A stretch of DNA of 64,000 nt, from positions 32,001 to 96,000 of the forward strand of contig CAWBHS010000078.1 of assembly GCA_963788655.1 (NCBI GenBank), read 5' to 3'. The stretch's first letter is position 1, and every line of letters begins with the position of its first letter. This document shows positions 3,538 to 63,800 of the stretch, piece after piece. The translations under genes were made by a program, and so were the position numbers. The notes below the pieces were generated by a model. That model was given only the letters and a program-made list of their open reading frames with translations, was not told where the DNA came from and made no database searches. This stretch comes from an uncultured Verrucomicrobiae bacterium (GTDB lineage: Bacteria; Verrucomicrobiota; Verrucomicrobiia; Limisphaerales; JAFGQR01).

Positions 3538-4422
3538 ATGCATTGGCAGAAAGTCACGCTGGTTGGCGTCGGATTGCTGGGAGGCTCGCTGGGCCTGGCC
3601 CTCAAGCAACGCGGTCTGGCGCGTACGGTGGCCGGTTACGTCCGCCGCGAAGCCAGTGTTGCGGAATGCCTGCAAAAAGGCGTCGCTGACGACGTCGGCT
3701 TGGATTTGCTGCGGGCGGCTGCGGACGCGGATCTCGTCGTCCTCTGCACGCCGATCGCGCAAATGCACAGCCTGACCGAACGTCTGCTGCCCGCGCTCAA
3801 AGCGGGCGCAATCATTACCGACGTGGGTAGCGTGAAAGGCAGTGTGGTGCGCGCGCTCGAAGCGCCGGTGGCCGGCGCCGGTGGCCACTTCATCGGCAGC
3901 CATCCAATGGCGGGCGCGGAAAAAATGGGCGTCAACGCCGCGCGAGCGGATTTATTCGAAGGCGCCGCGTGTGTGGTGACGCCTACGGCCCAATCGCGCC
4001 CCGACTGCGTTCGCCGGCTGACGGAATTCTGGCGAAGTGTCGGCGCGGCACCCTTGGAAATGAGCCCCGAACGCCACGATGAATTGGTCAGCCGATCCAG
4101 TCACTTGCCCCATTTTGTGGCGGCGGCGCTGGCCAATTATGTGTTGGACGCGGCGAGCGCGAAGGAACAGTCCCTTTTGTGCGCCACCGGATTTCGCGAC
4201 ACCACGCGCATTGCCTCCGGCTCGCCGGAAATGTGGCGGGACATCGCGCAGGCCAACGCGCATAATCTGTCCCGCGCTTTGGACGATTTCATCAAGCAAT
4301 TGCAGCGGCTGCGCGAAACGTTGGGCAATGGTAACAGTAACGATGTGATTAAGTTCCTGGAAGACGCCAAAACACGTCGCGACGCCTGGTGCAAACAAAC
4401 GACCTCGCGCTCTTCCGAATGA
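3538..4422 (+). CDS. tyrA: Prephenate/arogenate dehydrogenase
   Basis: GVGLLGGS Rossmann motif, DVGSVK, HPMAG, HDELVSRSSHLPH, FRDTTRIASGSPEMW; sits before aroA-cmk. Confidence 0.93.
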   Translation: MHWQKVTLVGVGLLGGSLGLALKQRGLARTVAGYVRREASVAECLQKGVADDVGLDLLRAAADADLVVLCTPIAQMHSLTERLLPALKAGAIITDVGSVKGSVVRALEAPVAGAGGHFIGSHPMAGAEKMGVNAARADLFEGAACVVTPTAQSRPDCVRRLTEFWRSVGAAPLEMSPERHDELVSRSSHLPHFVAAALANYVLDAASAKEQSLLCATGFRDTTRIASGSPEMWRDIAQANAHNLSRALDDFIKQLQRLRETLGNGNSNDVIKFLEDAKTRRDAWCKQTTSRSSE

Positions 4423-8027: not shown

Positions 8028-8163
8028 CTCCCTCACCCTAACCCTCTCCCCAAGGAGAGGGAACCGATGGAGGTGCCGCTACGGAAACCAAGGGACATCG
8101 TGTTTTCAGAAGACCGGTCATCGATTCTCCCTCTCCCGGGGGGAGAGGGCCGGGGTGAGGGGG
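8028..8163. repeat. REPIN (family 3, CCCTCACCC/CCCTCTCCC type)
   Basis: CCCTCACCCTAACCCTCTCCCCAAGGAGAGGG ... CCCTCTCCCGGGGGGAGAGGGCCGGGGTGAGGG as inverted arms. Confidence 0.85.
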
Positions 8164-8327: not shown

Positions 8328-9549
8328 TCATTTGGAGAGGCTTGTTGAAGCAGCGGGGGAGTTTGTGGTTCGTCGCCAGGCGGCAAACTTGATCGTAAAC
8401 GGCGGCTCAGAACCGGTGGTATAGACCACGGAATGTTGTATCATCGCGGAGGAAGTGACGAGCGCGTTGAGGTTGATGCCGAGCTGGGGATTGGCGAGCC
8501 GGTCGCCCGACTCGTCCAGCCATGGCCAGGGCGCGGACCATTGCCCATCGATCATTTCCCGGCAGGTTACGACGTGCTTGGCGGTGTCGAGCCACGTCAC
8601 GATCAGACTGTTGGGGCCGGTCACGGTTATCGCGGTGTGCCCGCTGCCGGAGCCGGTCAGCTTGAACTCCGCGCCCCAGCCGGTTTGGGAGTCGCGCTTC
8701 CGGTAGCGAATGGTTCCGCCGCCGAAGACCAGGTGAACGTCATCGCCATCGGCCGCCAAGCTGTAGAGGCCATAGCCGGAGTGCGAATGGGTGACCGCCT
8801 CCTCCGCGTCCCAGGACTGCCCGTTCCACTCCCGGCCATAGTAGCCGTCGTCCAGCAGGTTCCGGTTGTAAACCCAGAACGTTTTGCCGTTCGTCAGTGG
8901 CACGCCGACCGGGTCCGGGTAGGCGGTCGTGTTGTCATCAACCAGAATACAGGGAAAGCCCGGAGCAGTCTGCCACGCCCCGTTGCTTTGGACGGATTTG
9001 GTGACGACGGCATCGTAGGGTGCCTGGTTGAATCCGCCATCATAAACCATGAAGGCGATCCACGGCACACCGGAAGAACCCACGATCAGCTTCGGATACA
9101 TCACATTCTTGCCCTTGGGCACCTTGTAGGCGGTCTGTTCCTCCGTTGCCCAGGTGATGGTCCCGTCCCGTTGCGGAGTGCCGCTTCGGTAAACCACGTC
9201 CTCGCCTTCACTGGCGGCGCAATGCGCGTAATGAATCCGGGTGCCATCAGTACCAGCAGCCGAACCGGTGCCCCAGAGAAGCACCCTTCCGCACGAGCAG
9301 CGGCTCGCTCCAGCGGACGCCATCCGCACTCGTCCGGCACACCGCGTCGCGACCATCCGAGTAAAAGACCCAGAACAATCCGGCCATGCAGAACAGCTTC
9401 CGTTGCTTGGGATAATTGACGGCCCAGCCGTTCTTGGTCGGCACGGTGCAGACTTTGGATTGGATGACCTCCACTTCCGAACGCACGGGCCCGCACCCCC
9501 AAGCGAGCACACAAAGAATGGCAGCCGCACGCATCATTGGGGGGGACAC
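8328..9549 (-). CDS. Secreted beta-propeller (BNR/Asp-box-like) protein, split by a frameshift near 9250
   Basis: ORF 9247-9549 has a signal peptide and SADGVRW Asp-box; it joins ORF 8328-9530 at ...GCWY/DGTRIHYAH. Confidence 0.65.
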
Positions 9550-9563
9550 GCGGCTTTCTTTCC

Positions 9564-9658
9564 GCCCAACGAGATCACCGATAACGGCCCTCTCTAAAAA
9601 CCTTCAAACTGCTGTCTGGCGTGGCTGAACTGTTATTCGGTGAATCGCATTTCTTCGC
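9564..9658 (-). other. Vestigial attC site
   Basis: Minus strand ends GTTGGGC; stem TCACCGAATAAC/GTTATCGGTGA with one extra base; R'' end eroded. Confidence 0.5.
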
Positions 9659-9666
9659 TTCGGTGG

Positions 9667-9963
9667 TCATGGCGAAAACCTTTTGAGTCCTAAATTCGGA
9701 GTACGGCGGTCATGACGGAGCACCCACCCCCGTATGCACTTCGCCTGAATGTCGTAAAGGAAATGATAGGGGAACCGGTCAAGATTACAGCGACGATGCC
9801 CGCTTCGATCAAAGTGGAAATACGTTGGGTTCTCGATGGCCTTGCCAATCCCGACCTGGAACTCCGCGAAGAAGTCGTCTCCAAGCTGCGGCGATATTTG
9901 ATAATACTTTTTGAGGATTCGGTCCAAATCCACCTGAACTCGCCTGTGAAACCTAGCTTCCAC
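9667..9963 (-). CDS. Type II toxin, RelE/ParE family (cassette-borne)
   Basis: 98 aa, RRCNLDRFPYHFLY...VLRHDRRTP; overlaps the upstream antitoxin gene. Confidence 0.85.
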   Translation of the reverse strand: MEARFHRRVQVDLDRILKKYYQISPQLGDDFFAEFQVGIGKAIENPTYFHFDRSGHRRCNLDRFPYHFLYDIQAKCIRGWVLRHDRRTPNLGLKRFSP

Positions 9964-10165
9964 GGTGCCTGAGTCCGGAAACCAACTCGTGAAAAGTGAT
10001 CAAAACGCTGGGATCTGCATCGGCCTCCCGTCGCCGGCTCAACACCTCCTCGTCCGACACCTCATAGACGGGTGTCTCCAGCCCATGCAACAGTTGGGAC
10101 GCGAGCGAAGCGCGCTCCTCCTCGGAGAGTTTTGCGGCTTCTGCAGAAATTTCTTGTAGCTTCAT
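9953..10165 (-). CDS. Addiction-module antitoxin
   Basis: 70 aa acidic protein, LSEEERASLASQLLHGL...EEVLSRR; directly upstream of the toxin. Confidence 0.82.
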   Translation of the reverse strand: MKLQEISAEAAKLSEEERASLASQLLHGLETPVYEVSDEEVLSRRREADADPSVLITFHELVSGLRHRGS

Positions 10166-10174
10166 AGCACTGAT

Positions 10175-10203
10175 ATTTTAGATGACACGCAACCCTGATG
10201 CCA
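10175..10203 (-). promoter_or_regulatory. Candidate sigma70 promoter of the TA cassette
   Basis: Minus strand TGGCAT-17bp-TAAAAT, 9 nt before the antitoxin ATG. Confidence 0.45.
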
Positions 10204-10214
10204 CTCCGATTTTT

Positions 10215-10324
10215 GGCAAACGCAGGCCACCGACAGCCGCCGGAACAGCAAGGACGCTGACGAGGAACCCGACATCGACAAACCGAGCGGCCGGCGGCGG
10301 TTTGATGGACTGTCTTGTGTGAGC
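10215..10324 (-). other. attC site (degenerate)
   Basis: Minus strand GCTCACAC...ACCGCCGCCGG / CCGGCGGCTGT...GTTTGCC hairpin, similar to neighbouring attCs. Confidence 0.65.
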
Positions 10325-10351
10325 TCAGCATAGGCGCCGTCCAAGAGGGGC

Positions 10352-10777
10352 TCAAGTTCCTACCCGATTGAGCGAATGACCAATGGTTTCGAGTCTTTGG
10401 CCCACTGTCAAACGCCCATCGGCCTCCATTACTGCACGTGTCTGGACGTATCCGAAGCCCGCCTGACAAATCCCAAAACGAAAAACCCGCCTCGTGGCCT
10501 CTGGAGGATCTCCATAGCCAATCTTTGGGAAGAACCAAATTGTATTGCCTTCCAGAATCACCATTAGCCCCTGAAAACACAGTAAGTCCTTCCGCTTGCC
10601 GGGAGGAATGCCGCCGCCGCATTCAGGATCTTTGGAAGCGACAGCAACAAAATGCCCCGTGTTGTTCTTGATGCACAGGCTGTGAAAGACGCAGCATCCA
10701 AATACACGGAACACCATGACCGCTACCACTGAGCAGAATACATTGCGACCCAAGGAATATGCAACGGCGTGCTTCAT
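10352..10777 (-). CDS. Integron cassette protein, hypothetical (N-terminal hydrophobic segment)
   Basis: ATG lies 3 nt after the GTTGGGC core; the ORF fills the space between two attCs. Confidence 0.6.
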   Translation of the reverse strand: MKHAVAYSLGRNVFCSVVAVMVFRVFGCCVFHSLCIKNNTGHFVAVASKDPECGGGIPPGKRKDLLCFQGLMVILEGNTIWFFPKIGYGDPPEATRRVFRFGICQAGFGYVQTRAVMEADGRLTVGQRLETIGHSLNRVGT

Positions 10778-10780
10778 CGC

Positions 10781-10903
10781 GCCCAACGCCAATCACCGGC
10801 CGCCGCCGGAAGCGGGCGCTGGCAGCGAATCCAGCGTCTGGATAATTCAGCGCGACCGAATTCAAACGCAGGCCGGCGGTTCGTGTGCGTCCGTTTGTCA
10901 TCC
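10781..10903 (-). other. attC site
   Basis: 123 bp, near-identical to attCs at 11758 and 12723; R' GTTGGGC, R'' degenerate (GGATGAC). Confidence 0.8.
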
Positions 10904-11380
10904 GATATGTTTGTCTAAAGGTAACCCTAGCTTGTGGGCCAGTACCTCTGCCTCTCCGTATGCGTGCTCGCAGGGATGTCCAGATGCAACCTCGAAATAA
11001 GTAATCTCCATCACTTTGCCGCTCTGGCGCCGTAAGCCAATGTAGATCATGTCGTTTTCGCGAACCCGCTCAAACCGACGATACGTAACAGCGGTAAAGC
11101 CCCCAATGGAATATCGTGTGAACCAAATGCGCAAACAGCCGAAAAGAAGGCTCTCTCTGGACACGACATGAGATTCCGTGTCAATGCGTGTCCAATGCTC
11201 GACAAACAAAGCGAATCCACAAATGAGAAATGCGTAACCGAAGATGGACCACGGCCCGGATTCCTGATGAGGCGCAACCAGAAGGGATACCACACCACAC
11301 GCAGTCGCAAAAATCCCGCCCAAGTAATGGTATGCCCGGCGATAAGGGTGCCAATGGTATGAGATGATCGCCTCGGACAT
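10898..11380 (-). CDS. Integron cassette membrane protein (2 TM plus soluble domain)
   Basis: Two hydrophobic segments; the ORF fills the cassette and its stop lies in the attC R'' box. Confidence 0.7.
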   Translation of the reverse strand: MSEAIISYHWHPYRRAYHYLGGIFATACGVVSLLVAPHQESGPWSIFGYAFLICGFALFVEHWTRIDTESHVVSRESLLFGCLRIWFTRYSIGGFTAVTYRRFERVRENDMIYIGLRRQSGKVMEITYFEVASGHPCEHAYGEAEVLAHKLGLPLDKHIG

Positions 11381-11395
11381 GGCGTTCAATATTTC

Positions 11396-11485
11396 GCCTA
11401 ACGCTGAACGCAGCCACGCCGGGACGATGGCGCTCGATTGAAACCCTGACGGCCTCCCGGTATTGTCTGACGTGACTGGTTCGGC
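11396..11485 (-). other. attC site
   Basis: Minus strand GCCGAAC...GTTAGGC, 90-bp imperfect hairpin. Confidence 0.88.
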
Positions 11486-11507
11486 GATCTGTCCCTCAGA
11501 AGCTCAA

Positions 11508-11742
11508 TCATGGTTTCTGTCCCTTGGAATGCTCGACTCTGAGCAAGTCGTCCACTGATGGCTTGGGGCTAGGCCGCTGTCGCCTGTTGCGACACATCGC
11601 CACCAACCTGCTCGCGATCCCGCAGACCGAGAGGCACAACCATAGAATCGTTAGTGTGGTCCATCCTGACGAGGTGCCGCGCACTACAAAGTATGCCCCC
11701 ACAGGCGGCAAACATCAGTATCAGCGCGATGTTGACTCTCAT
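11508..11742 (-). CDS. Integron cassette small membrane protein (probable +1 frameshift near 11705)
   Basis: MRVNIALILMFAA (ATG 11742) joins VGAYFVVRG...TILWLCLSVCGIA in another frame to give two TM helices. Confidence 0.55.
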
Positions 11743-11757
11743 GGCGCGTACGTTATT

Positions 11758-11883
11758 GCCGAACGCAAAGGATCACCGACCGCCGCGGGGAGCGCACGCT
11801 GGCTGCGAATCCAGCGTCCGAATAATCTGGCCTGTCCGAACTGAAGCACGGGGCGGCGGTTCGGGTGAATCCGATTGTTCGGC
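11758..11883 (-). other. attC site
   Basis: GCCGAAC...GTTCGGC, 126-bp hairpin. Confidence 0.88.
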
Positions 11884-11897
11884 GGCCCAATCATTGG

Positions 11898-12326
11898 TCA
11901 CTCTCTTTTCTTTCTGGCCGGCTTCGATGGCATCGCCTCAGTTTCGCGGATGATGCGTGCGGTGGCTCCGAACAACAAGTCACGCACTCCCCATACCGTG
12001 CCGTTGGTGCCGACACCTTCGTAACGAACAAACAACCAACCTGGATGAACGGTGATGGGCTTGCCCTCGTTCGCGGCAGGATCCCAGCGATACGTGTTCC
12101 AGCCGACGCGGGTGTAACTGCCGTCAGGGCTAGGACTGTCAAGGCCATGGTAAAAGATGACCCGGCCGTCGGCGTATCGGACGAAGGCGTGCAGGTCGCA
12201 CAGGTGGTAGGTGAGGTAGCCGGTCCAGTTACCTCGGAGCGGAATCGGAAGGACGAGCCGACACAGCACAAGAAACCCGATGGCAGTAAAGGCCAATTTT
12301 AGTCTGCGTTTTGCGACCGGTTTCAT
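11898..12326 (-). CDS. Integron cassette protein, membrane-anchored or secreted hypothetical
   Basis: MKPVAKRRLKLAFTAIGFLVLCRLVL; ATG 6 nt after the GTTCGGC core. Confidence 0.7.
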   Translation of the reverse strand: MKPVAKRRLKLAFTAIGFLVLCRLVLPIPLRGNWTGYLTYHLCDLHAFVRYADGRVIFYHGLDSPSPDGSYTRVGWNTYRWDPAANEGKPITVHPGWLFVRYEGVGTNGTVWGVRDLLFGATARIIRETEAMPSKPARKKRE

Positions 12327-12332
12327 TTTTCC

Positions 12333-12457
12333 GCCGAACGCGAAGCTCACCCACAGCCGCCGGAGCGAGGCGTCCGCAGCGAATCGGGCGTCTGCATTTC
12401 CGGGGACGGTGGGAACTGGCAGGGCGGGCGGCTGTTGGGTGTAGCGTCTGGTTCGGC
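12333..12457 (-). other. attC site
   Basis: GCCGAAC...GTTCGGC, 125 bp, CCCACAGCCGCC/GGCGGCTGTTGGG stem. Confidence 0.88.
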
Positions 12458-12709
12458 ATTCCGATTCCGACTCCGCAGCCGGCAGCCGGCCCCGACGAAA
12501 AAACCAAGGACTGCAAACAGGAACAAGATGACAGCAATACTCCTGATCGCATCTCCAGGCTCCCTGGCACTCATGCTTAGCACCTCAGCAACCCTCCGGA
12601 GCCCGACCAGACAAACCGCAATGCCCAAGACAGCAGCAATGAGCGCACCGGTCAATCCAGTCCAGATGACTGATCGAAGACTTGCTTTGTTGTGCGAGAA
12701 TTGTGACAT
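12347..12709 (-). CDS. Integron cassette 2-TM membrane protein reading through its attC
   Basis: Two TM helices; last ~36 codons are encoded by the attC. Confidence 0.7.
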   Translation of the reverse strand: MSQFSHNKASLRSVIWTGLTGALIAAVLGIAVCLVGLRRVAEVLSMSAREPGDAIRSIAVILFLFAVLGFFVGAGCRLRSRNRNAEPDATPNSRPPCQFPPSPEMQTPDSLRTPRSGGCG

Positions 12710-12722
12710 GGCTCCGTCTTAC

Positions 12723-12848
12723 GCCGAACGCAAAGGATCACCGACCGCCGCCGGAAACGGGCGGTGGCAGCGAATCCAGCGTCCGAATAACGCGGTCAGC
12801 CCGAACTGAAGCGCGGGGCGGTGGTTCGTGTGCATCCGCTTGTTAGCC
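12723..12848 (-). other. attC site
   Basis: GGCTAAC...GTTCGGC, 126 bp. Confidence 0.88.
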
Positions 12849-12861
12849 ATTCCGCGTCTCA

Positions 12862-13224
12862 TCAGTTCAAAATGTCGGCGACGCGTGCCGTGGCGAGATG
12901 GCCACAGACGCCACACGCCAGCAACACCAGTATGCCGAAGGAAACAAAGATGACCAGTCTCCGTCGCGGCGACCATGAAACGGTAACGGGGCTGGCCAAT
13001 AAGACACCACCAACCGTCAAGCAGCCAAAGCTCGTGAACGCTGTCGGCAAGGTGAAAGCTGAACAAACTTCGCCGAAAGTCGCTGGCGTCGGAAATCCTC
13101 CTCGGTAAAACGCGCCCTGGAGCCAGACGCCAAACAAGCCGCCGATCGTCGTGACCACTCCCAGTACCAGAATAATCCATGAGAGGATCTTCCGGTCGCG
13201 CGCAGTTATGGAGAGCGTGCTCAT
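12862..13224 (-). CDS. First cassette: 3-TM membrane protein
   Basis: Three hydrophobic segments; ATG directly follows the GTTAGCC core. Confidence 0.72.
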   Translation of the reverse strand: MSTLSITARDRKILSWIILVLGVVTTIGGLFGVWLQGAFYRGGFPTPATFGEVCSAFTLPTAFTSFGCLTVGGVLLASPVTVSWSPRRRLVIFVSFGILVLLACGVCGHLATARVADILN

Positions 13225-13308
13225 GGCTAACGCTGTTTAGGCGTACCAACGGGTGAAATAACAGAATTAGGCAGAAAAAAGTTACCTTTTACCCTGTTAG
13301 GCAGAAAA
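13225..13308 (-). other. attI-like site
   Basis: Minus strand GCCTAAAC-AGC-GTTAGCC simple site with no long hairpin; TTAGGC repeated on + at 13237, 13267 and 13297. Confidence 0.7.
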
Positions 13309-13544
13309 TCAGTTTCCATAGGAGCAAAGGAATACTTCGTCTGCACAACAAGTCAACTCCGTAGTTAAGTGGTTACGGTCATTCGGTTCCTCTTCAGACG
13401 CTCCCGAAGTTTCCCCGATGCTTGCCTCGGCTTTGAAGGCTTCCGCGCGTTCGCCGGCAACGGTGTTGCCAATGACGCAACTGCCGGGAAAATCAGTCGT
13501 GAAATACGCTTTGCTTGGCGCGGGGCATTTGTTTCCATCGCTTC

Positions 13545-14306
13545 ATGTCAACTGTGAAGCTGCCAACCATGGTCCGTTACTGCGACCGGATGCTGCGCCC
13601 GGATCAGGTCCAGGATTGGGACGGGGCCGTAAACGGCCTGCAAGTCGAGAATGCGGGGCCAGTGAAACGCCTCGCCGCCGCCGTGGACGCCAGTCTGGCC
13701 ACTGTCCAAATGGCCGCGGACGCCCAGGCGGATTTGCTGCTCGTTCATCATGGATTGTTTTGGTCGGCCCGCCAGCCCTGGACCGGCAAGAACTATGCGT
13801 TGCTCCGGTTGCTGCTCGATCACCACTTGGCGGTGTATAGCTCGCACTTGCCGCTGGACCGGCACCCTCGGTTCGGCAACAACGCGCTGTTGGCTGCCGC
13901 CCTCGGTTTCCAGCGACGGCAACCGTTCTTCTTTGACCGCGGGCAGTATCTCGGTTTCCAGGTCCAGGCCAACCTTCGTCGCGACGTGCTGGCCAAACGC
14001 TTGCACCAAGCCACCGGTGCGGAACCGCGAGTGGTGCCCGGCGGCCCGGCCGTGTGCCGGCGCATCGGGATTGTCACGGGTGGGGCTGGCGCCGAACTGA
14101 AGCTGGCCGCGAGTGAAGGCGTGGATACGTTCATCACCGGCGAAGGGCCGCATTGGACGTATGCGTTGGCGGAAGAATTGGGGATCAACGTGCTGTATGG
14201 CGGCCATTACGCGACGGAAACGTTCGGCGTCAAAGCCCTCGCCGAACATCTTGCCGAAAAGTTTAAGCTCTCGTGGGTGTTCCTGGATCATCCCACAGGG
14301 CTTTGA
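13545..14306 (+). CDS. Nif3-like dinuclear metal centre protein (YbgI family)
   Basis: NGLQVE, LVHHGLFW, SHLPLD, FITGE, GGHYATETFGV. Confidence 0.92.
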   Translation: MSTVKLPTMVRYCDRMLRPDQVQDWDGAVNGLQVENAGPVKRLAAAVDASLATVQMAADAQADLLLVHHGLFWSARQPWTGKNYALLRLLLDHHLAVYSSHLPLDRHPRFGNNALLAAALGFQRRQPFFFDRGQYLGFQVQANLRRDVLAKRLHQATGAEPRVVPGGPAVCRRIGIVTGGAGAELKLAASEGVDTFITGEGPHWTYALAEELGINVLYGGHYATETFGVKALAEHLAEKFKLSWVFLDHPTGL

Positions 14307-14386: not shown

Positions 14387-15436
14387 GTGAAAGAAACGAT
14401 CCGTCACCGTGCGTTGGAGCTTGGCTTTGATGCCTGTCGTTTTACGACGGCGGAAGCACCGGAATCCGCTTCGCATTTGCAGCGCTGGCTCGAGGCCGGC
14501 CGACAGGGAGAAATGGCCTACCTGCAACGCACCGCCGCCAAACGCAACAATCCCCAACTGGTGCTGCCGGGAGCGCGGAGCGTGATCACCCTGGCGGTCT
14601 CGTATGCGCGCGACCCGAGCACCGCGACGACGAATTTGGAATCATCGCGCCCGTTTCCCGGCGTCATTGCCCGTTACGCCCGGTTTGACGATTATCACGA
14701 CGTGCTGGCGGGGCCGCTGAAAGAACTGAGCCAACTGGTGAACACCCTCGGCGGCGACGAAACGCGCTCGTTATGGTATGTCGATACCGGACCACTCCTG
14801 GAACGCGACCTGGCGCAACGGGCGGGACTCGGATTCGTAGGCAAGCACACCAACCTCATCAGCCGGTCCCTGGGAAACTGGTTCTTTTTGGCGGAAATCA
14901 TCACCACCCTCGAATTGCCACCGGACGCGCCGGAGAAGAACCATTGCGGCAACTGCACTCGCTGTATCCCGGCGTGCCCGACCGGAGCCATCCTTGGCCC
15001 GTTTCAACTCGACGCCCGGTTGTGCATCTCCTACCTGACGATCGAATTGAAAGGGGCCATTCCGGTGGAACTGCGTCCGTTGATGGGCAATCGCATTTTT
15101 GGCTGCGACGATTGCCTGGCGGCGTGCCCATGGAATCGGTTTGCGCACGCGGGACGATTGCTTGAATCCCACGCCCACACCGACCTGGCCCAGCCGGATT
15201 TGCTCGAATTATTGCAACTTGATGAGCCCGCATTGCGCCAACGGTTTCGGGGCACTCCCATCCTGCGCAGCAAGCGCCGCGGACTGCTCCGCAATGTCTG
15301 CGTGGCCCTGGGCAACGTGGGTGATGCCACCGCCTTGCCAGCGTTGCGCGAAGCCGCCAGCGATTCCGAGCCGCTGATTGCGGAGCATGCCCGTTGGGCG
15401 GTGCAACGCCTCGAGGAAAGGCTGGGCGGACAATAA
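14387..15436 (+). CDS. queG: tRNA epoxyqueuosine(34) reductase
   Basis: DYHDV, YVDTGPLLERD, CGNCTRCIPACPT, CISYLTIE, GCDDCLAACPWN; C-terminal HEAT repeat. Confidence 0.95.
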   Translation: MKETIRHRALELGFDACRFTTAEAPESASHLQRWLEAGRQGEMAYLQRTAAKRNNPQLVLPGARSVITLAVSYARDPSTATTNLESSRPFPGVIARYARFDDYHDVLAGPLKELSQLVNTLGGDETRSLWYVDTGPLLERDLAQRAGLGFVGKHTNLISRSLGNWFFLAEIITTLELPPDAPEKNHCGNCTRCIPACPTGAILGPFQLDARLCISYLTIELKGAIPVELRPLMGNRIFGCDDCLAACPWNRFAHAGRLLESHAHTDLAQPDLLELLQLDEPALRQRFRGTPILRSKRRGLLRNVCVALGNVGDATALPALREAASDSEPLIAEHARWAVQRLEERLGGQ

Positions 15437-15770
15437 ATCCGAAGACCGAAGGTCAAAATCTGAAAGACTGTAAACTACAGGGCGCGGTGGTAAGACGAGA
15501 CTCCGTCGAGCCCTGATTTCTCCGCAGCGCTATCGCAGTCCCGGCAGCGTAAATGTGGGAAGCCTTTGGCCGTTCGAAACACCAGGAACTTCCCTTTAGT
15601 CGCGTTTGCACTTTCGAACGCCTTTGGAAGAATCAGGGCTCGACGGAGTCTCGCCCTACCATCTGATATTGAGACCTCGAAGGTGTGGGGTGTGCGCAAG
15701 AACCATTTCGGGCCTCGGATTTCGGACTTCGGTTTTCTTTCGGATTTTGGATTCCGCGCTTCGGAATTTG
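15435..15770. repeat. Heptamer-repeat inverted element (CCGAA/TTCGG units) enclosing a REPIN
   Basis: AAATCCGAAGACCGAAGG... left arm and TTTCGGGCCTCGGATTTCGGACTTCGG... right arm. Confidence 0.65.
15489..15660. repeat. REPIN (family 2) copy 2
   Basis: Arms 15489-15516 and 15633-15660 match copy 1. Confidence 0.85.
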
Positions 15771-47895: not shown

Positions 47896-48655
47896 CGAAC
47901 TGACGCAACCACTAAAATATCTGCGCTTGAAAGGGCTGCTGGCCCACTGGGATGAGTATCTCCAGTTGGCGGCCCAAAAGAACTTCTCCCACGATCACCT
48001 CCTCCGGCACGTGGTGCAGGAAGAATACCGGACCAAGCGGGAGAACGCCCGCCAGTTCCGCCTCCGCAAGGCCGCCATCCCCGAACCGCTGGTCATCGAA
48101 ACCTACCCCTTCGCCCGGCAGCCCAAACTGAACAAGAAGAAACTGATGGCGCTGTATGACTCCCTGAACTTCATGCGGAACCACCAGAACATCCTCTGGC
48201 TGGGCCGCACCGGGTGCGGCAAGACCGGATTGGCCACCAGCTTTTTGATCCACGCCATCAATCACGGCTACAACGGACGCTTCGTCTCCTTCGCTGAACT
48301 CATCACCGAGCTGTTCCAATCGGTCGCCGACCACTCCGAACGCAAAGTCATGCGCAAATACCTGGCGTGGGATCCCTTGTTGGTCGACGAGATCGGCTAC
48401 ATTCCCATCGAACCCGTCCAAGCGGGGCTCTTTTTCGATCTGATGCAGCGGCGGCACAAGAAAAAGACCACTCTCATCACCTCCAATCTGGGCTTCAGCG
48501 ACTGGGGTTCCTTTCTCAAAAACGACCACCTCACCGCCGCGCTCATCGACCGCCTGACCGAAACCAGCCATGTCTTCAACATGAGGCAATGCAACGGCAT
48601 CCGTGACCGCCTCAGTTCGGACGATGAACTTCCCGCCGATCCGCCACAGGGCTGA
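47888..48655 (+). CDS. istB: IS21 helper ATPase
   Basis: GRTGCGKT Walker A, LLVDEIGY Walker B, LITSNL, AALIDRL; overlaps the istA stop. Confidence 0.93.
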   Translation: MNDELTQPLKYLRLKGLLAHWDEYLQLAAQKNFSHDHLLRHVVQEEYRTKRENARQFRLRKAAIPEPLVIETYPFARQPKLNKKKLMALYDSLNFMRNHQNILWLGRTGCGKTGLATSFLIHAINHGYNGRFVSFAELITELFQSVADHSERKVMRKYLAWDPLLVDEIGYIPIEPVQAGLFFDLMQRRHKKKTTLITSNLGFSDWGSFLKNDHLTAALIDRLTETSHVFNMRQCNGIRDRLSSDDELPADPPQG

Positions 48656-49493
48656 CCCACTGCGGGCCATCCCGTTGACCGCGGTGCTGCGGGCCTGGGG
48701 TGCTCAACCCGATGCCTCGGACCAGCGCAAGTGGCACACGCCTCAGGGTGTCCTTTCGGTCAATGGCGCCAAATTCATCAACTGGAGCCGCGGCGGGGGC
48801 GGCGGCGGCGCCATCGATCTGGTCATCCATTTGAACCGTTGCGGCTTCCGGCAAGCCCTGGACTGGCTGGCCGGCCATTTCCCCTCACCCCCAGCTCAGA
48901 CCGACCTGGGCTTGGCCCAACCCCAGTTCCAACTGCCCGTCCCGGATCCCGCCCAACTCGCCCGCGTCCGCCACTATTTGCTCCAGCAGCGCCGGCTGCT
49001 ACCCGACCTCATTGACCCGCTCATTCAAGCCGGTTCCCTTTACGCCGATCACCGAGCCAATGCCGTCTTCCTACTGCAGGGAGCTAACGACACTCCGGTC
49101 GGCGCCGAACTCCGGGGAACGACGGCCCAGTCCTGGCGGGGCATGGCTCCCGGATCCAAAAAGGATTGGGGCTTCTTCTCTATCCCTCGGGTCCCGTTTC
49201 CTCCCCAAGCCAATACGGGGCCAGGCGGCATCCTGCTGTGTGAATCGGCCATCGACGCCCTCAGCGGCCGCATCCTTCATCCGCAACTGGCGTGCGTCTC
49301 GACCGCGGGTGCTCGGCCCAATCCCCGCTGGCTTGGCCCGCTCCTGGCACAAAGTCGCACCGTCTATTGCGGCTTCGACACCGACACGACCGGTCAGACC
49401 ATGGCCCAGGCCATGATCGCCCTGCATCCGGCGGTCCAGCGCTTGGCGCCGTCGGACCACGATTGGAACGACGTTCTCGGTTTGCAGCCGTAG
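48624..49493 (+). CDS. DUF3991/TOPRIM primase-like protein
   Basis: GGGAIDLV, FRQALDWL, VGAELRG, LCESAIDALS, CGFDTDTTG (DxD), DWNDVL. Confidence 0.82.
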   Translation: MNFPPIRHRADPLRAIPLTAVLRAWGAQPDASDQRKWHTPQGVLSVNGAKFINWSRGGGGGGAIDLVIHLNRCGFRQALDWLAGHFPSPPAQTDLGLAQPQFQLPVPDPAQLARVRHYLLQQRRLLPDLIDPLIQAGSLYADHRANAVFLLQGANDTPVGAELRGTTAQSWRGMAPGSKKDWGFFSIPRVPFPPQANTGPGGILLCESAIDALSGRILHPQLACVSTAGARPNPRWLGPLLAQSRTVYCGFDTDTTGQTMAQAMIALHPAVQRLAPSDHDWNDVLGLQP

Positions 49494-49674: not shown

Positions 49675-49770
49675 GCCGAACAAGATCACTGGACCGAACG
49701 CGGGCCGGCCACGGCGGTTGGCAATTCGGATGTCACTGGCCGCCCGCGTCGGTCAGTTCTGACGTTCACC
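49675..49770 (+). other. Solitary attC site
   Basis: GCCGAAC...ACTGGACCGAACGCGGGC / GCCCGCGTCGGTCAGT...GTTCACC hairpin with unpaired extra bases. Confidence 0.72.
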
Positions 49771-59250: not shown

Positions 59251-60540
59251 TTACTTGGTTTCCTTCAGGTATCCGGTCGCTTCAAGAATCGAACGCCATT
59301 TGGCCGCCGTGCGGTCGAGCGCCGTCCGGGGCGTCAAATGGCCGGCGATGGTTTCCGCAATTTGGGTGTCAAGATAGTCGCAGAGTTCTTGCGAAGGCGG
59401 GATGCGGAACCGCGGTTCACTGTGCTCCAATCCTTTGAGCAGTTGCGGCAGATAAAACATCCGTGCCCGGCAGGCGGCATCCTGGTAGGTGGAAAGGCGC
59501 GGCGATCCTTTTCCGTATTGCAGAAACAACCGGCAGGTGTTGGTGGGATTGAGCTGGAACTGAATCCACTGAAAGGCCGCCTCCGGGTCGGGGCAGGCGC
59601 GATTGATGCCCAACGACCAGGCGCTCAGTTGCGGTTTCCCGCCGGGAATGACCGCCGCCGCAATTTGGCCGGAAACCTTGCACAAATTGGTGTCCTGCAT
59701 CTGCGCCCAAATCAGCGTGGGCCAGGTCAGATACATCGCGCCCTTCCCCTGGAGAAACAACGCGTTGGCCTCCTCGATCCCGAGCCGCTGCGAATGGGGC
59801 GGTGCGTAGCGGAACATCTCGACAAATAGTTTCAAGCTGCGCACGCCCGCTTCCGAATTCAGCGTCGGCTGCCACCGATCATCGACCAGGCGCCCCCCCA
59901 GGCCGAAGAGAATGCCCGACCATACAGTGAAGTTCTGTTCCTTCAGGCCCATGATGACGTTGCCGTGCAGCGATTCCGTGTTCAGAAAACGGGCGATCTC
60001 CAGGTATTCATCCCACGTGCGGGGCGGCTCGAGTTGACGGCCCGTTTGGCGTTGGAACTCCTCCGCGCGGGCGGCGAATATATCGGTTCGATAGAGCAGC
60101 GTGATCACGTCGCATGCCAGCGGCAAGGCCCTGGTGTGTCCTTGCCATTCCCCGGCGTTTTGGCGAACGGCGGAAATGAAATCGGATGTCTTCACATCAT
60201 GGCCGGCAAGGAAATCGTCCAACGGACGCAAGTGCGGCATGATTTCGCCGTCCCATTGCTGGGCGACCTGCATCACGTCGTATAAGTCCGTGTCGTTCGC
60301 CAGGTCCGTGATTTCCTTCTCCCGCAGCGTAAGGTACGGGGCGGATACCACCTTGACGCGGATACCCGTTTGATGCTCGAACTCCGTTGCTAGAGCTTGA
60401 GCCGCTTCGGCATAGATGCCGTTCATGTGGAAGGAAGTAATTTCGCGCTCCGGAACGGACAGCTGGCGTCCGCACCCGATAAGCAGCAACGAGCAAGCAA
60501 GTAACAACGCTGCCAAGTTTGGCTGGCGAATCAAAAACAT
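59251..60540 (-). CDS. Sugar ABC-transporter-type solute-binding lipoprotein
   Basis: LIGC lipobox, FEHQTGIRVKV, LLYRTDIF, PRTWDE, FLQGKGAM. Confidence 0.88.
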   Translation of the reverse strand: MFLIRQPNLAALLLACSLLLIGCGRQLSVPEREITSFHMNGIYAEAAQALATEFEHQTGIRVKVVSAPYLTLREKEITDLANDTDLYDVMQVAQQWDGEIMPHLRPLDDFLAGHDVKTSDFISAVRQNAGEWQGHTRALPLACDVITLLYRTDIFAARAEEFQRQTGRQLEPPRTWDEYLEIARFLNTESLHGNVIMGLKEQNFTVWSGILFGLGGRLVDDRWQPTLNSEAGVRSLKLFVEMFRYAPPHSQRLGIEEANALFLQGKGAMYLTWPTLIWAQMQDTNLCKVSGQIAAAVIPGGKPQLSAWSLGINRACPDPEAAFQWIQFQLNPTNTCRLFLQYGKGSPRLSTYQDAACRARMFYLPQLLKGLEHSEPRFRIPPSQELCDYLDTQIAETIAGHLTPRTALDRTAAKWRSILEATGYLKETK

Positions 60541-60590
60541 CGTGGCAGCAAAGAAATGGTCAACATTGTGGTTGCTTTGATTTTAGCGTT

Positions 60591-60748
60591 CACCGTCGCG
60601 CAGCGTTTGGAGTGCGCGGAGCTTGCTCCCGCTTTCGTTTGATCCCACATGTTCCCAAAACCAACTCCACGTCCGCACACATTGCCCGCCATGCTCCAGG
60701 CGAAAGCGCCGGCAAGCCAGGCGCACTCCAAACGCTGGCGCGACGGTG
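60591..60748. repeat. REPIN (family 8) copy 2
   Basis: Same arms as 58972-59119 with a different spacer. Confidence 0.85.
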
Positions 60749-60835
60749 GCACACCATTCCAATTGGGGCGGCAAGCGCTTAAAGCGCTTCCGCCCCAGCC
60801 TTGGCAGATTCTTCCAGTGACGCAACCAAGAAACC

Positions 60836-63800
60836 TTACGGCTGATTGCGCAGCCGGTAATAGCCGGTGCCCGGGCCCGGCAGCGTAAGGTTCACCGGAC
60901 TGGCGTCGCCGCCGTCCACGTCGGTCCAGCCATCCGGGTTGGTAACGTCATCATTTTCTTGGAGCACATAACCCGCACCAACCCACGAGATGGTCACCTG
61001 ATCCGCCGAGCGCTCGATCGTCAACGAAGGCGGCGGATTCGTTGCCACCAGTAGATGACGCGTCATCAGCTCGTTGGCTTTGGCGGTAACCGCAGCTTCG
61101 TCTGGCAGATCGCTCAAGTCGTAAACGGCCAATTCATCAAGGCGCCCCTGGAAACCGTTTGCGTGGGCGGTGTTGGCGGCGCCGACGACCAGCAAGCTGC
61201 TGACCGTGATGCCCCGCGAAAAGGTGTCGCGGACATTGCCGGAAGCCACCCCATCCAACCAGCATTCCAGGCGATCCGCCACCCCGTTGATGCCATCGCC
61301 GTAAAACACCCACATCACATGGTGCCAGTTACTGTCGTTGAAGGTGGGACCCGCGTCGCTGCGACCCGCAGCCCCACCAAAGGTTTCCAATTGGTCCGGC
61401 TTGAAGTCATAAATAAACGCGGGCGAATTGTCGGGGGCGCCGCCGAAGTTTATCAGATAATTCTGGCGATCTCCGTCATCAGGCGTGTTCGGTCCCAGGG
61501 GCTGCATCCAGAATTCGACGGCCCAAGGGCCTTCCAGTTCGCCCTTGGAAGTCGAAAGCTCGGCAGCCTCGAAGAAATTGCCACCGTTGAAATTGGCCGC
61601 CAATCCCAGTTGGAGACCGCTGCCAATGACGCTGTGTTCCACGCGTCCGGCCCCATTCGGCACGAGCTCATTCTGAGCATTCACCGGAGGTGGCAGCGTA
61701 ATGGGTGCGAGTTGGAGCGCATTGCCATCGACCTCGTCGAAATTCCAATAAAGGACGGGAGAATCCGCCAACACCGTTTCGGCGTAACTTAGACCGCCAC
61801 TGGTCATGGCCGAATTTCGATGGCTGGCCACCATGGCGCTAACTTGCGTTTCGACTTCCTGCTCGGTGACCAGACCGGAGAGGTCATAAACGGCAAGTTC
61901 GTCGAGACGCCCTTCGAATCCGTTCGCCCCATCCGTTGTCGCGGCGCCGACCAGCAGGAGGCTGTTCACGGTAACGCCTGCCGAATAAGTGTCGCGAACA
62001 TTGCCGGAAACCACCCCGTCCAACCAGCATTCCAAGCGATTCGCCACCCCCACGGTACCATCACCGTAGAATACCCACATCACATGGTGCCAATTGCCGT
62101 CGTTGTAGGTCGGGCCCGCCATTGCTCCGACCGGCGGCACCGCCAAAGACTTCCAGTTCATCCGGTTTGAAGTCGTAAATGAACGCCGGCGTGTTGTTCG
62201 GCGAACCGCCAAAGTTGATCAGGTAATCCGCCCGATTATCGGTGTTCGGTCCCCTTCGCCTGCATCCAGAACTCGACCGCCCACGGCGCGCCCACCATGA
62301 CTCGGCCAGTGCGAAGGGCATTGGCTTGGTAAAAGTTGGCTCCGTTGAAGTCGGCCGCGTTGCCCAGTTTATCCAGGCCGCTGCCAATCGCGCTGTGACT
62401 CACCCGTCCGGCGCCAGCCATCGGAACCAAGTCGTTCTCCGAGGTTACTTGCGGCTGGCCCAGCGTAGCCTGTTGCACGGCGTTCCCGACATACTCATCA
62501 AAGGACCAGTACAGGAATGGATCATCGCGCAGCACTTCAAACGCATAACCAGTCTGGGCGGGCGGTTCGGCTGGTTCAGGGACGGTCAGGATCGCATCGT
62601 CGCTTTGCTGCACGGCCGCACCGGACGTCAAGCGGACGCTGTACGAACTGGTGCCGATGTCGGCAACCTGTAAGATGTGGGGTGGTGAAAGAGGGATCGG
62701 TGGCCCCGGCAATGGCCAGTCCATTCTTCAACCACTGGTAGTGCAGAGACTCCGGCGGCGCGTTCAAGACGTTGGCCACCACGCCGAACGAAGCCGTCGT
62801 ATGAATCTCCGCCGTGGTATCCGCCGGTTGTTGCGTAATCACAATCTCAATATTCCCGGGATCGCCAAAACCCGCAGCGTAATGCGTTGGTGCCATGTCC
62901 GAAACCTTGGCCAGCACGTCCGCTTCGGTGCCCAAACCGCTCAGATCGTAAACGGCCAATTCGTCCAGGCGGCCTTCGAAACCACCAGCACCGGTGTCCA
63001 GTGCGGCGCCAAACAGCAGGCTGTTGTTCAGGATGAGAGAACGGGAAAAGTTGTTTCGAACATCGGGCACTACCGCGCCATCGATATAGGCATCGACGCG
63101 GTCAGCCACGCCGTTGGTGCCATCCCCGTAATAGACCCAGAACACATGGTGCCATTGCGTGTCAGACACATGGGGCCCACTACCCGTCCGCCCAAAAACC
63201 TGGGCATACATTTCCAGTTCCTCCGGATTGTAATCATAAATGAAGGCGGTGGCGTTGCCGTCGAAGTTGGCGATGTAATCCTGGCGATCGCCTGCGCCGA
63301 GAGTATTGTCGCCCTGGACCTGCATCCAGAACTCCACCGCCCACGGCGGCCCCAGCGAAGAGCGGCCACTATCAAGTTTCATCGCCTGGAAGAAGTTGGT
63401 GCCGCTCAACTCAGCCGCACCTCCGAGTTCCAAACCGCTGCCAATCGCGCTGTGTTCCGACCCGCATCGCGTCAAACGTTGCCACCAAATCATTGTTCGC
63501 ATTGTCCGGCGGCGGAAGGACCACCGGTGCTAACTGGTGCGCGTTGCCATTCGCTTCATCGAAGTTCCAGTAAAGCATCGGTTCATCCAGGAGTACCACG
63601 TCCGAATAGGTGTTGCCGGTGTCAAAGCTACCTTCAAAATAATGATCGACTGCCATTTGTCCCGCCTTCGCCGCCACGGCGGTTTCATCGGCCAAGCCGC
63701 TGAGATCATAGACTGCCACTTCGTCCAAGCGACCTTCAAAGCCATTCGAACCATCCGGCTTGGCCGCCCCAATGCGGACCACGGTCGCGTTAAGCCGCTT

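Follow-up and report, generated by a model that had tools for sequence, protein, structure and literature searches.

The stretch of DNA analysed here, called the window, comprises 64,000 nucleotides (nt) of contig CAWBHS010000078.1 (C78, 137,582 bases) from the assembled genome of an uncultured Verrucomicrobiae bacterium from soil (GCA_963788655.1). On its minus strand, from 13356 down to 9564, lies an integron array that consists of a 125-nt leader followed by seven cassettes. All seven are co-oriented and each ends in an imperfect palindrome, its attC site. Cut at the crossover point between the G and the first T of GTT (G/TT), the cassettes space their attC sites 362-651 bp apart. The first six carry one co-oriented open reading frame (ORF) each and the seventh carries two that overlap; the reading frames start 6-25 nt past the 5' end of each cassette. 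The G+C content of the array is 0.53-0.61, compared with 0.60-0.65 in the flanks. A first-pass annotation, made from the letters of the DNA, had described seven minus-strand cassettes with hairpins, and this description holds: seven repeats follow seven minus-strand ORF units, and all seven match a model of attC. The same annotation had the Nif3-family gene following directly, which is wrong, because that gene lies on the plus strand (ATG at 13545), divergent from the array, and a gap of 315 bp separates it from cassette 1.

With at least two attC sites less than 4 kb apart and no integron-integrase gene within 4 kb, the array falls under the operational definition of an attC-site cluster without an integron-integrase (CALIN), the class to which it had first been assigned. 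That assignment can be refined. The array is headed by an attI-type site, a promoter-like box and a leader ORF, and it is therefore better described as an integron platform minus its integrase than as a bare attC cluster. This is a genuine seven-cassette integron array, and most probably a platform without an integrase whose cassettes were inserted at attI by an integrase encoded elsewhere.

The hairpins of the array are attC sites in both identity and structure. Two covariance models bear on this. Model R1 was built from an alignment of the four long sites of the window and contains an R box, an unpaired spacer, an 18-bp L stem with three bulges and a small terminal hairpin. An RNAalifold consensus from a MAFFT alignment of all seven sites was meaningless because the variable loops misalign, and the structure was instead set by hand after a DNA fold of attC1. 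In its own genome R1 gives at least 66 matches at E ≤ 1 among the best 150 of 5269 candidates. These include two clusters, on contigs C49 and C59, that start about 1 kb from integron-integrase (intI) genes and diverge from them, which is the orientation of classical integrons; the R1 matches on C59 span 60300-63561. Model R2 was built only from sites of these two intI-adjacent arrays (with filters off, 20 matches reached E ≤ 0.05, of which one is a reverse-strand echo) and was run on both strands of the whole window with filters off. It matches all seven window sites on the expected strand, with E values of 4.7e-18, 1e-17, 7.5e-17, 6.5e-8, 1.7e-7, 1.2e-5 and 0.006. The next-best match in the window has an E value of 0.19, with reverse-strand echoes and a solo site at 49675-49770 set aside, and R2 detects no attC-like site beyond 9564. 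Forward-strand scores of 72-76 bits stand against 12-24 bits on the reverse strand, and the proximal four attC sites score as high as the sites of the intI-linked arrays. The narrower R1 gives E values of 7e-4 for attC4, 0.11 for attC6 and 6.5 for attC7, so that the last two rest on R2. Rfam, at its gathering thresholds, reports one tRNA in the window and no match to an attC family.

The paired structure of these sites is preserved by compensating change. GTT is found at R' in all seven window sites and AAC at R'' in five of them, being unclear in attC6 and absent from attC7. Across 58 distinct sites of the genome, the three pairs formed by the AAC and GTT triplets hold in 56, and 90.4% of cells pair, compared with 73.7% in shuffles; 29 of the 33 pairs vary on both sides. 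Within the L stem 96.9% of cells pair, and 16 of 17 pairs vary on both sides. For the whole structure and for the L stem alike, none of 500 shuffles reaches the observed values, and sliding the partner columns as a control gives pairing of 26-44%. The 58-site alignment had been fitted to the covariance model, a procedure that biases the figures towards the structure. Pairing is less strict in the outer four pairs of the R box; this is expected, since the neighbouring cassette supplies the outer half of R'. In attC1 the bottom strand folds with single-base bulges at C16, T20 and T24, counted from the R'' end, and with an unpaired spacer of 4-5 nt, while the R2 consensus has two bulges and one optional bulge on the R''-L'' arm.

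The array divides into a proximal and a distal part. The proximal four attC sites look intact and, judged by sequence, recombination-competent, while the distal three (5-7) appear eroded. The register of the cassettes follows the same division. Cassettes 1-4 start with TTAGCC, TTCGGC, TTCGGC and TTCGGC, and their own R'' boxes are GGCTAAC, GCCGAAC, GCCGAAC and GCCGAAC. The entry core is thus the exact complement of the cassette's own R'' in the first four cassettes, just as the first-pass annotation had stated. The match is informative in cassettes 1 and 4, each of which is followed by a core site different from its own. A complementary start (TTRRRY against the own R'') is the signature of a circular intermediate. 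It is found in cassettes 1-4 and not in cassettes 5-7, which are out of register and have degenerate R'' boxes (GACAAAC, unclear and AGCGAAG, respectively).

One cassette is shared with an array that has an integrase gene. Cassette 3 is also the second cassette of the intI-linked C49 array (C49:290404-290982), where it is likewise bounded from G/TT to G/TT. The two copies are identical at 558 of 579 columns (96.4%) over exactly the length of the cassette, and identity falls to 64% in the attC-bearing flank upstream and to 50% downstream. Cassette 3 is the only one of the seven tested with a full-length second copy; the other six share just their attC part with other loci.

The 315-bp gap between Nif3 and the array holds the leader. 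Its segment at 13229-13345 is 96% identical over 81 nt to the stretch of C59 that runs from the start codon of intI to the first cassette. Over the 49 nt from the proximal direct repeat to GTT (the attI core), all 49 positions are identical in the two copies. The C59 copy sits between intI and the first cassette, and the start codon of intI overlaps its TTGAC box. The parts of the leader follow one another in the order TTGAC box, conserved ATG, distal direct repeat (DR2), proximal direct repeat (DR1), L box and GTT, and a GCCTAA motif is common to the two direct repeats and the L/R inverted pair. With its direct repeats and simple site, the leader is a site of the double-stranded kind rather than an attC-like hairpin, and R2 has no match at 13225-13356 at E ≤ 5. 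In the attI1 site, four integrase molecules are bound; in the window leader, the direct repeats are candidate positions for integrase binding. Homologous to the C59 attI and breaking off at GTT, the leader is an attI-type docking site, at which recombination would take place.

The leader is also a repeated element. A search with an nhmmer profile yields 13 full copies across the genome (E ≤ 6e-13) and three partial matches, and the similarity ends exactly at GTT in all 13. Among the eight long copies, mean pairwise identity is 48% from the TTGAC box to the distal repeat, 74% in the distal repeat (in the eight copies having it), 52% in the spacer, 90% from the proximal repeat to GTT and 46% after GTT. 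An intI gene stands beside the leader in only one of the 13 copies, that of C59. R2 sites lie downstream in the right orientation at no fewer than 10 of the 13 leaders, and none are among the matches listed for C28, C115 and C110 (best 150 of 6775 candidates). In the 3.4 kb upstream of each of the other eleven leaders, no recombinase is found among the 20 ORFs with a Pfam match, out of 32 ORFs of at least 120 amino acids. The genes upstream of the orphan leaders are ordinary ones, for example tilS and genes for a tRNA synthetase, a decarboxylase and a histidine kinase. All 12 orphan leaders break off close to the same TTGAC box, and their upstream flanks have in common only a miniature inverted-repeat transposable element (MITE) and no shared element otherwise. 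Two further leader types are multi-copy as well. The C49 type (C49:289659-289929) recurs on C9 (two copies), C27, C47, C59, C3 and the ends of C56 and C39. The C69 type (C69:40941-41040) recurs on C46, C44 and C100, where the copy abuts an intI fragment.

Several features of the leader family were noted alongside these results. The leader was considered as a cassette with its upstream bound at G/TTGAC and rejected: a G precedes TTGAC in only 6 of 13 copies, no matching R'' box is present, and some pairs of copies stay similar for about 10 nt further upstream of TTGAC. The leaders at C113:20547 and C115:10963 are close relatives of that at C38:51396, a single direct-repeat unit (27 nt, in frame) having been lost between them, and the DNA upstream of their TTGAC boxes is unrelated, so that the left boundary is sharp. 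At C110:198784-198986, two attI cores stand in tandem about 140 nt apart in a copy without the conserved leader ATG, and the stretch between the two crossover points resembles a cassette with attI as its recombination site.

Expression signals are built into the leader. The TTGAC box is present in 13 of 13 copies and is invariant although the surrounding leader segment is only 48% identical, which suggests that it is a promoter element, a candidate −35 box of a cassette promoter (Pc-like). It is followed at 36-38 nt by the ATG of the leader frame in 11 of 12 copies and at 37 nt in the window. This spacing is the one expected from a −35 box to the start of a transcript, and the message would therefore be leaderless, with the leader frame starting at its 5' end.

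The frame itself has 30 codons and runs across the two direct repeats and the simple site into the core of cassette 1, which supplies the stop; the ATG of cassette 1 follows two bases later. Across the 12 copies with an ATG, stops occur in frame 0 in none, in frame +1 in 10 and in frame +2 in all 12. Lengths from ATG to the crossover of 89, 92, 71, 62 and 59 nt are all 2 modulo 3. In 4 of the 12 copies the end of the frame falls at core positions 3-5, and in 11 it falls 4-25 nt past the crossover G; in one the frame runs on. In several copies the leader stop overlaps or abuts the cassette start codon. The leader frame is thus conserved, and its architecture suggests that it is translated and that this translation is coupled to the first cassette.

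The integrase is missing from the entire contig. The earlier statement that no tyrosine recombinase lies by the array can be extended to all 137.6 kb, since none of the 32 TIGR02249 matches and none of the 20 PF00589 matches of the genome fall on C78. Neither the 188 nt between the TTGAC box and Nif3 nor the rest of the contig holds an intI remnant. In a complete integron, intI adjoins attI and the array; here Nif3 holds the divergent position. Elsewhere in the genome, three intI genes score above the TIGR02249 cut-off. That of C59 has one in-frame TAA in its N-terminal part, after which a 293-amino-acid frame is open, and that of C49 has one TAG. The third, on C69, has no stops and a complete N-terminus, and it lies 75 nt from the contig end without an array there. 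Fragments of intI stand next to arrays on C100 and C62. The intI contigs and C78 have a common G+C content (0.59-0.60) and a common MITE family. The first-pass alternative that the integrase was lost or acts in trans was a fair disjunction because integron-integrase genes do exist elsewhere in the genome, one of the three being intact. A second intI lies next to the first on C59 (C59:67152-68725; L010 10153-11726) and is split in two, with an 87-amino-acid GIY-YIG nuclease-like ORF between its halves (L010 10927-11190).

Sites of this kind are frequent in the genome and among its relatives. At E ≤ 0.01, R2 detects no fewer than 107 of them in the genome, in about 24 clusters of two or more sites as read from the list, and the attC type is present in 27 of 40 sampled relatives. 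The relatives found through Nif3 are Verrucomicrobiota (Limisphaerales, Pedosphaera, subdivision 3). Beside Nif3 in relatives the array is absent, R2 giving no match at E ≤ 0.01 in 8 loci and none in 80 loci (846,534 bases). A search of 300 other genomes of the order, with at most two candidates scored per genome, found no leader DNA. The order Nif3-queG is kept in the same-genus genome G001, where nothing on the array's side away from Nif3 is kept, and the left-flank genes of the window are upstream of Nif3 in none of 80 relatives. Because synteny is limited to Nif3-queG, no clean empty site can be demonstrated.

These observations present a model in which the cassettes would have entered as circles at the leader attI through an integron integrase that recombines attI with the bottom strand of attC. 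The enzyme would come from elsewhere in the genome, where the candidate sources are the intact intI of C69, the nonsense-bearing intI of C59, which has the same attI type, and another on C49. The first cassette would give the leader frame its stop (TAG, positions 3-5 of GTTAGCC) and place its own ATG two bases on. A stop supplied by the cassette and an adjacent ATG would couple the translation of whichever cassette lands first to the leader. At the far end, the terminal cassette, with its ParE-like toxin-antitoxin pair, probably stabilises the array. The array is probably served in trans, a service that presumably extends to the present day, and it is one of about a dozen orphan platforms that integrases elsewhere in the genome could serve.

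A number of observations weigh against this model or limit its reach. The attC6 (R2 E value 0.006) and attC7 (1.2e-5) sites are weak and have no clean R'' box, and given this, cassettes 5-7 may be frozen. The test with R2 is only partly independent, as its training sites were chosen by R1, which itself came from the window. Between the two copies of cassette 3, 21 columns differ, among them four 1-nt indels in the coding part, which means that the exchange is not recent or that there are assembly errors; either one copy is frameshifted or the assembly has errors of the homopolymer type. The −10 region that would accompany the TTGAC box is weak, which is why a consensus promoter scan is silent there. 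The only intI beside this attI type, that of C59, has a nonsense codon, its neighbour is split and the C49 gene has a TAG, and the intact C69 integrase would have to recognise an attI of the window type. The attI core may be conserved because the leader frame is coding, because the integrase binds there, or for both reasons. Finally, the genome is a metagenome-assembled bin, 86% complete with 5.6% contamination. One public soil-metagenome run contains 9% of the sampled words, and its contigs of 151-447 nt match a few stretches exactly. These contigs bridge no junction (13309-13505 included) and show no joints, and they give no evidence either way on excision, turnover or the junction between Nif3 and the leader.

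CALINs are more numerous than complete integrons in genome surveys, and their origin and activity are unsettled: decay, translocated pieces and insertion at genomic sites are all under discussion. Decay would make the array a dead remnant, left when a complete integron lost intI by deletion, with the array frozen, attI and the cassettes decaying and nothing acting in trans. The erosion of the three distal attC sites fits such a history, as do the nonsense codon in the cognate-looking C59 intI, the disruption of its neighbour and the limited identity of the cassette 3 copies (96.4%), and the intI fragments by the arrays on C100 and C62 show that decay does occur in this genome. Uniform decay, however, would not leave an attI core identical at 49 of 49 positions to an intI-linked copy next to leader segments that are about 50% identical. 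Nor does it sit well with a leader frame open in 12 of 12 copies, with proximal attC sites that score like those of intI-linked arrays, with an intact intI on C69 or with the lack of any intI remnant on the contig, including the 188 nt up to Nif3. Random deletions, moreover, would not yield 12 orphan leaders that share an end near the TTGAC box. A dead remnant is therefore unlikely. Genomic-site insertion would instead make the array a bare CALIN, produced by integrase-driven insertion at a non-att site (attG), that was never a platform. The portions of Loot et al. (preprint, 10.1101/2022.09.11.507474) that deal with such events describe cassettes inserting at many genomic sites, and the solo attC at 49675-49770 shows the kind of product they would leave. 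The cassettes entered, though, not at some arbitrary GTT but at a leader of 125 nt that shares homology with the C59 attI and has direct repeats and a simple site, and this makes the attG route highly improbable.

An assembly chimera, in which the array belongs by an intI gene, for example at the end of C69, and became attached to the Nif3 flank by way of the repeated leader, is very unlikely as well. The contamination of the bin, the 13 copies of the leader, the position of the C69 intI 75 nt from a contig end without its array, and short read contigs that do not bridge 13309-13505 all leave room for such a join. The promoter-proximal part of the window leader is nevertheless unique, being about 50% identical to the other copies. 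Eleven other orphan leaders abut different housekeeping genes, so that many independent chimeras would be needed, and the intI contigs share G+C content and MITE family with C78. That the hairpins are some other repeat, such as a repetitive extragenic palindrome or a MITE, is scarcely credible. The genome is indeed rich in palindromic repeats, and the single-site folding z-scores are modest (+0.2 to −2.6), but sites of this family stand beside intI genes in the classical orientation and delimit the shared cassette 3 exactly at G/TT, and they have AAC...GTT triplets in 56 of 58 cases, strand asymmetry and strong covariation.

A bolder version of the platform served in trans can be put forward only tentatively. 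The integron of this genome may have been dismantled, with promoter, leader ORF and attI forming a module of about 125 nt that is under selection and has been dispersed to a dozen or more sites, each taking up and expressing a short cassette array of its own and all served in trans by a few integrases. The dispersed modules would be the 13 copies of this type, together with copies of two other leader types, among housekeeping genes. This is the less probable outcome. Closely related copies have a sharp end at the TTGAC box, beyond which the upstream DNA is unrelated, and such a docking module, if real, would spread by a mechanism undescribed for integrons.

A comparison of the array with known systems shows both shared and distinct features. 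The relevant passages of Cury et al. 2016 (PMC4889954) define a CALIN as a cluster of attC sites without an integron-integrase and report intI pseudogenes near 15 of 279 CALINs and none near 264. In the same passages, attI was sought by exact match to class 1-3 sites only, and an attI-bearing CALIN of the window type would thus have been invisible to that survey. Like most of the CALINs described there, the window array has attC sites without a nearby intI or intI pseudogene; it differs in retaining attI, a promoter-like box and a leader ORF, and its leader is one of 13 copies in one genome. In a literature search, supplementary files excluded, the portions of the sources covered reported neither CALINs with an attI nor a genome with many orphan attI copies, which is no proof of absence.

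The sedentary chromosomal integrons of Vibrio, with attC sites of the V. cholerae repeat type, offer the closest structural likeness in the sections of Bouvier et al. 2009 (PMC2727003) used for the comparison. There, too, the attC sites are long (about 125 nt) and mutually similar, with an unpaired central spacer and a variable terminal structure, and toxin-antitoxin cassettes stand within the array. The extrahelical bases of the V. cholerae repeat are G16, T20 and T24, and replacing G16 has a minor effect; the window sites likewise have three at 16, 20 and 24 of the R''-L'' arm, a correspondence that holds if the paper counts from the same end. In contrast to Vibrio, the first extrahelical base here is C or A and not G, no integrase is adjacent, the host is verrucomicrobial, and there are many short arrays instead of one large one.

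The leader frame recalls ORF-11 of attI1. The passages on this frame in Fonseca and Vicente 2022 (PMC8876359), which cite Hanau-Bercot et al. 2002 on ORF-11 and ORF-18, describe an ORF that overlaps the crossover and receives its stop from the first cassette, usually TAG at positions 3-5 of GTTRRRY, and that drives translation of cassettes without an initiation region of their own. Both have a short frame over the crossover, a TAG supplied by the cassette and a cassette start codon that is close or overlapping, and as with ORF-18, a core without a stop lets the frame continue into the 5' end of the cassette. The window frame differs in its length (30 codons compared with 11), in having no Shine-Dalgarno sequence and in reading through both direct repeats. 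Its ATG, 36-38 nt past the TTGAC box in copies of this type, suggests a leaderless transcript.

Two further systems concern cassettes away from an integrase. According to the relevant part of a Xanthomonas study (PMC12444791), CALINs can be mobilised in trans by a functional IntI. In Xanthomonas as here, a platform has been progressively inactivated and cassette arrays remain at several loci of the chromosome with no intI close by. That genus, as portrayed in the same part, has one ancestral platform at ilvD and a few CALIN loci, whereas this genome has about a dozen copies of one attI leader and two other leader types among unrelated housekeeping genes. The Loot et al. preprint, in the portions cited above, proposes attG insertion as the origin of single attC sites lacking an integron-integrase (SALINs) and of small CALINs. 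Its cassettes, like those of the window, lie away from any integrase gene, and the solo attC at 49675-49770 fits that route; the window array, unlike them, entered through an attI-type site.

The array thus illustrates that a locus classed as a CALIN can retain every cis-acting part of the platform: a docking site, a promoter-like box and a candidate leader frame for translational coupling. One genome can carry many such platforms per integrase gene. If they are served in trans, the capture capacity of an integron extends past the site beside intI, and tools that seek only intI and attC undercount functional platforms. Should the module indeed be dispersed in the way tentatively proposed above, many environmental CALINs would be live platforms. 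A leader frame like that of class 1, with a stop supplied by the cassette, in a distant phylum also suggests that the link between the GTTAG core and cassette expression is wider than one clinical class.

Features of the array, its leader and flanks, and the two intI-linked arrays used for comparison (window coordinates unless a contig is named; attC coordinates of the cassettes run from R'' to R' on the minus strand)
Feature	Position	Strand	Details
TTGAC box	13352..13356	-	candidate −35 of the cassette promoter (Pc-like)
Leader ORF	13227..13319	-	30 codons, spans attI; ATG 13319; stop TAG 13229-13227, positions 3-5 of GTTAGCC
DR2, distal direct repeat of attI	13296..13308	-	TTTTCTGCCTAAC
DR1, proximal direct repeat of attI	13262..13280	-	part of the DR1-to-GTT core
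attI simple site	13225..13242	-	L box GCCTAAAC, 3-nt spacer, R box GTTAGCC; crossover G/TT (G = 13231)
Cassette 1	12729..13230	-	502 bp; ORF 13224-12862, 120 amino acids, membrane-like, no family; attC1 12848-12723 (126 nt)
Cassette 2	12339..12728	-	390 bp; ORF 12709-12347, 120 amino acids, extends into its own attC; attC2 12457-12333 (125 nt)
Cassette 3	11764..12338	-	575 bp; ORF 12326-11898, 142 amino acids; attC3 11883-11758 (126 nt)
Cassette 4	11402..11763	-	362 bp; ORF 11742-11569, 57 amino acids; attC4 11485-11396 (90 nt; R2 E 6.5e-8)
Cassette 5	10787..11401	-	615 bp; ORF 11380-10898, 160 amino acids, no family; attC5 10899-10781 (119 nt; R2 E 1.7e-7), R'' degenerate
Cassette 6	10221..10786	-	566 bp; ORF 10777-10352, 141 amino acids; attC6 10314-10215 (about 100 nt), apparently eroded
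Cassette 7	9570..10220	-	651 bp; antitoxin-like ORF 10165-9953, ParE-like toxin ORF 9963-9667; attC7 9659-9564 (about 96 nt), R'' degenerate
Nif3-family gene	13545..14306	+	flank, divergent from the array; TIGR00486 E 1.1e-46
queG	14387-15436		flank, after Nif3; queG domains
Lipoprotein-like gene	8328..9549	-	flank beyond the array; no family; two reading frames
intI-linked array of C49	C49: intI 288364-289293; attC sites 290282-299245	intI -	intI and attC sites divergent
intI-linked array of C59	C59: intI 66134-67021; attC sites 60052-65479	intI +	intI and attC sites divergent

The cargo of the array is largely without a name. None of the eight cassette ORFs has a family above the cut-off in Pfam, NCBIfam or PADLOC, and the cassette 5 protein matches only unnamed clusters in Atlas. 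Cassette 7 is the exception in that its two ORFs, which overlap by 11 nt, resemble a ParE toxin-antitoxin pair. The antitoxin-like ORF matches PF09720 (E value 1.3e-3) and the toxin-like ORF matches PF05016 (E value 0.12), both below the cut-off; in Atlas the toxin-like ORF has a score of 0.97, with PF05016 on 30 of 30 matches. Its function would thus be that of a toxin-antitoxin system, and the cassette has a promoter-like site of its own at 10204-10175.

Beyond attC7, a transposon-like right end was sought and only attC-like similarity was found repeated there. The lipoprotein-like gene that follows runs from an ATG at 9549 to a stop at 9247 in its N-terminal part and continues in a 400-amino-acid frame, with an apparent frameshift near 9250-9275; it is either a pseudogene or carries an assembly error. 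Further along, a G/C-rich palindrome at 8030-8161 was considered as an attC and rejected as a separate repeat, of the CCCTCACCCC...GGGGAGAGGGTTAGGGTGAGGG type, which both models match weakly (E value at least 0.43). A similar unit lies upstream of the C49 intI (L009 ~4355-4395).

Two solo attC matches lie on the contig outside the array. The one at 49675-49770 (plus, or top, strand; R2 E value 8.4e-12) follows a small ORF just past a 296-amino-acid ORF at 48603-49493 and looks like a single inserted cassette, similar to a SALIN. The other lies outside the window at C78:110662-110761. On the Nif3 side of the array, positions 15489-15661 are taken up by a MITE-like element, about 175 nt long, whose terminal inverted repeats measure some 35 bp. 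Counting alignments of 90 nt or more, it is present at 45 loci spread over 30 of the 115 contigs, with 197 BLAST rows when partial matches are included, and copies or end fragments of it lie within 3 kb upstream of 6 of the 13 attI leaders.

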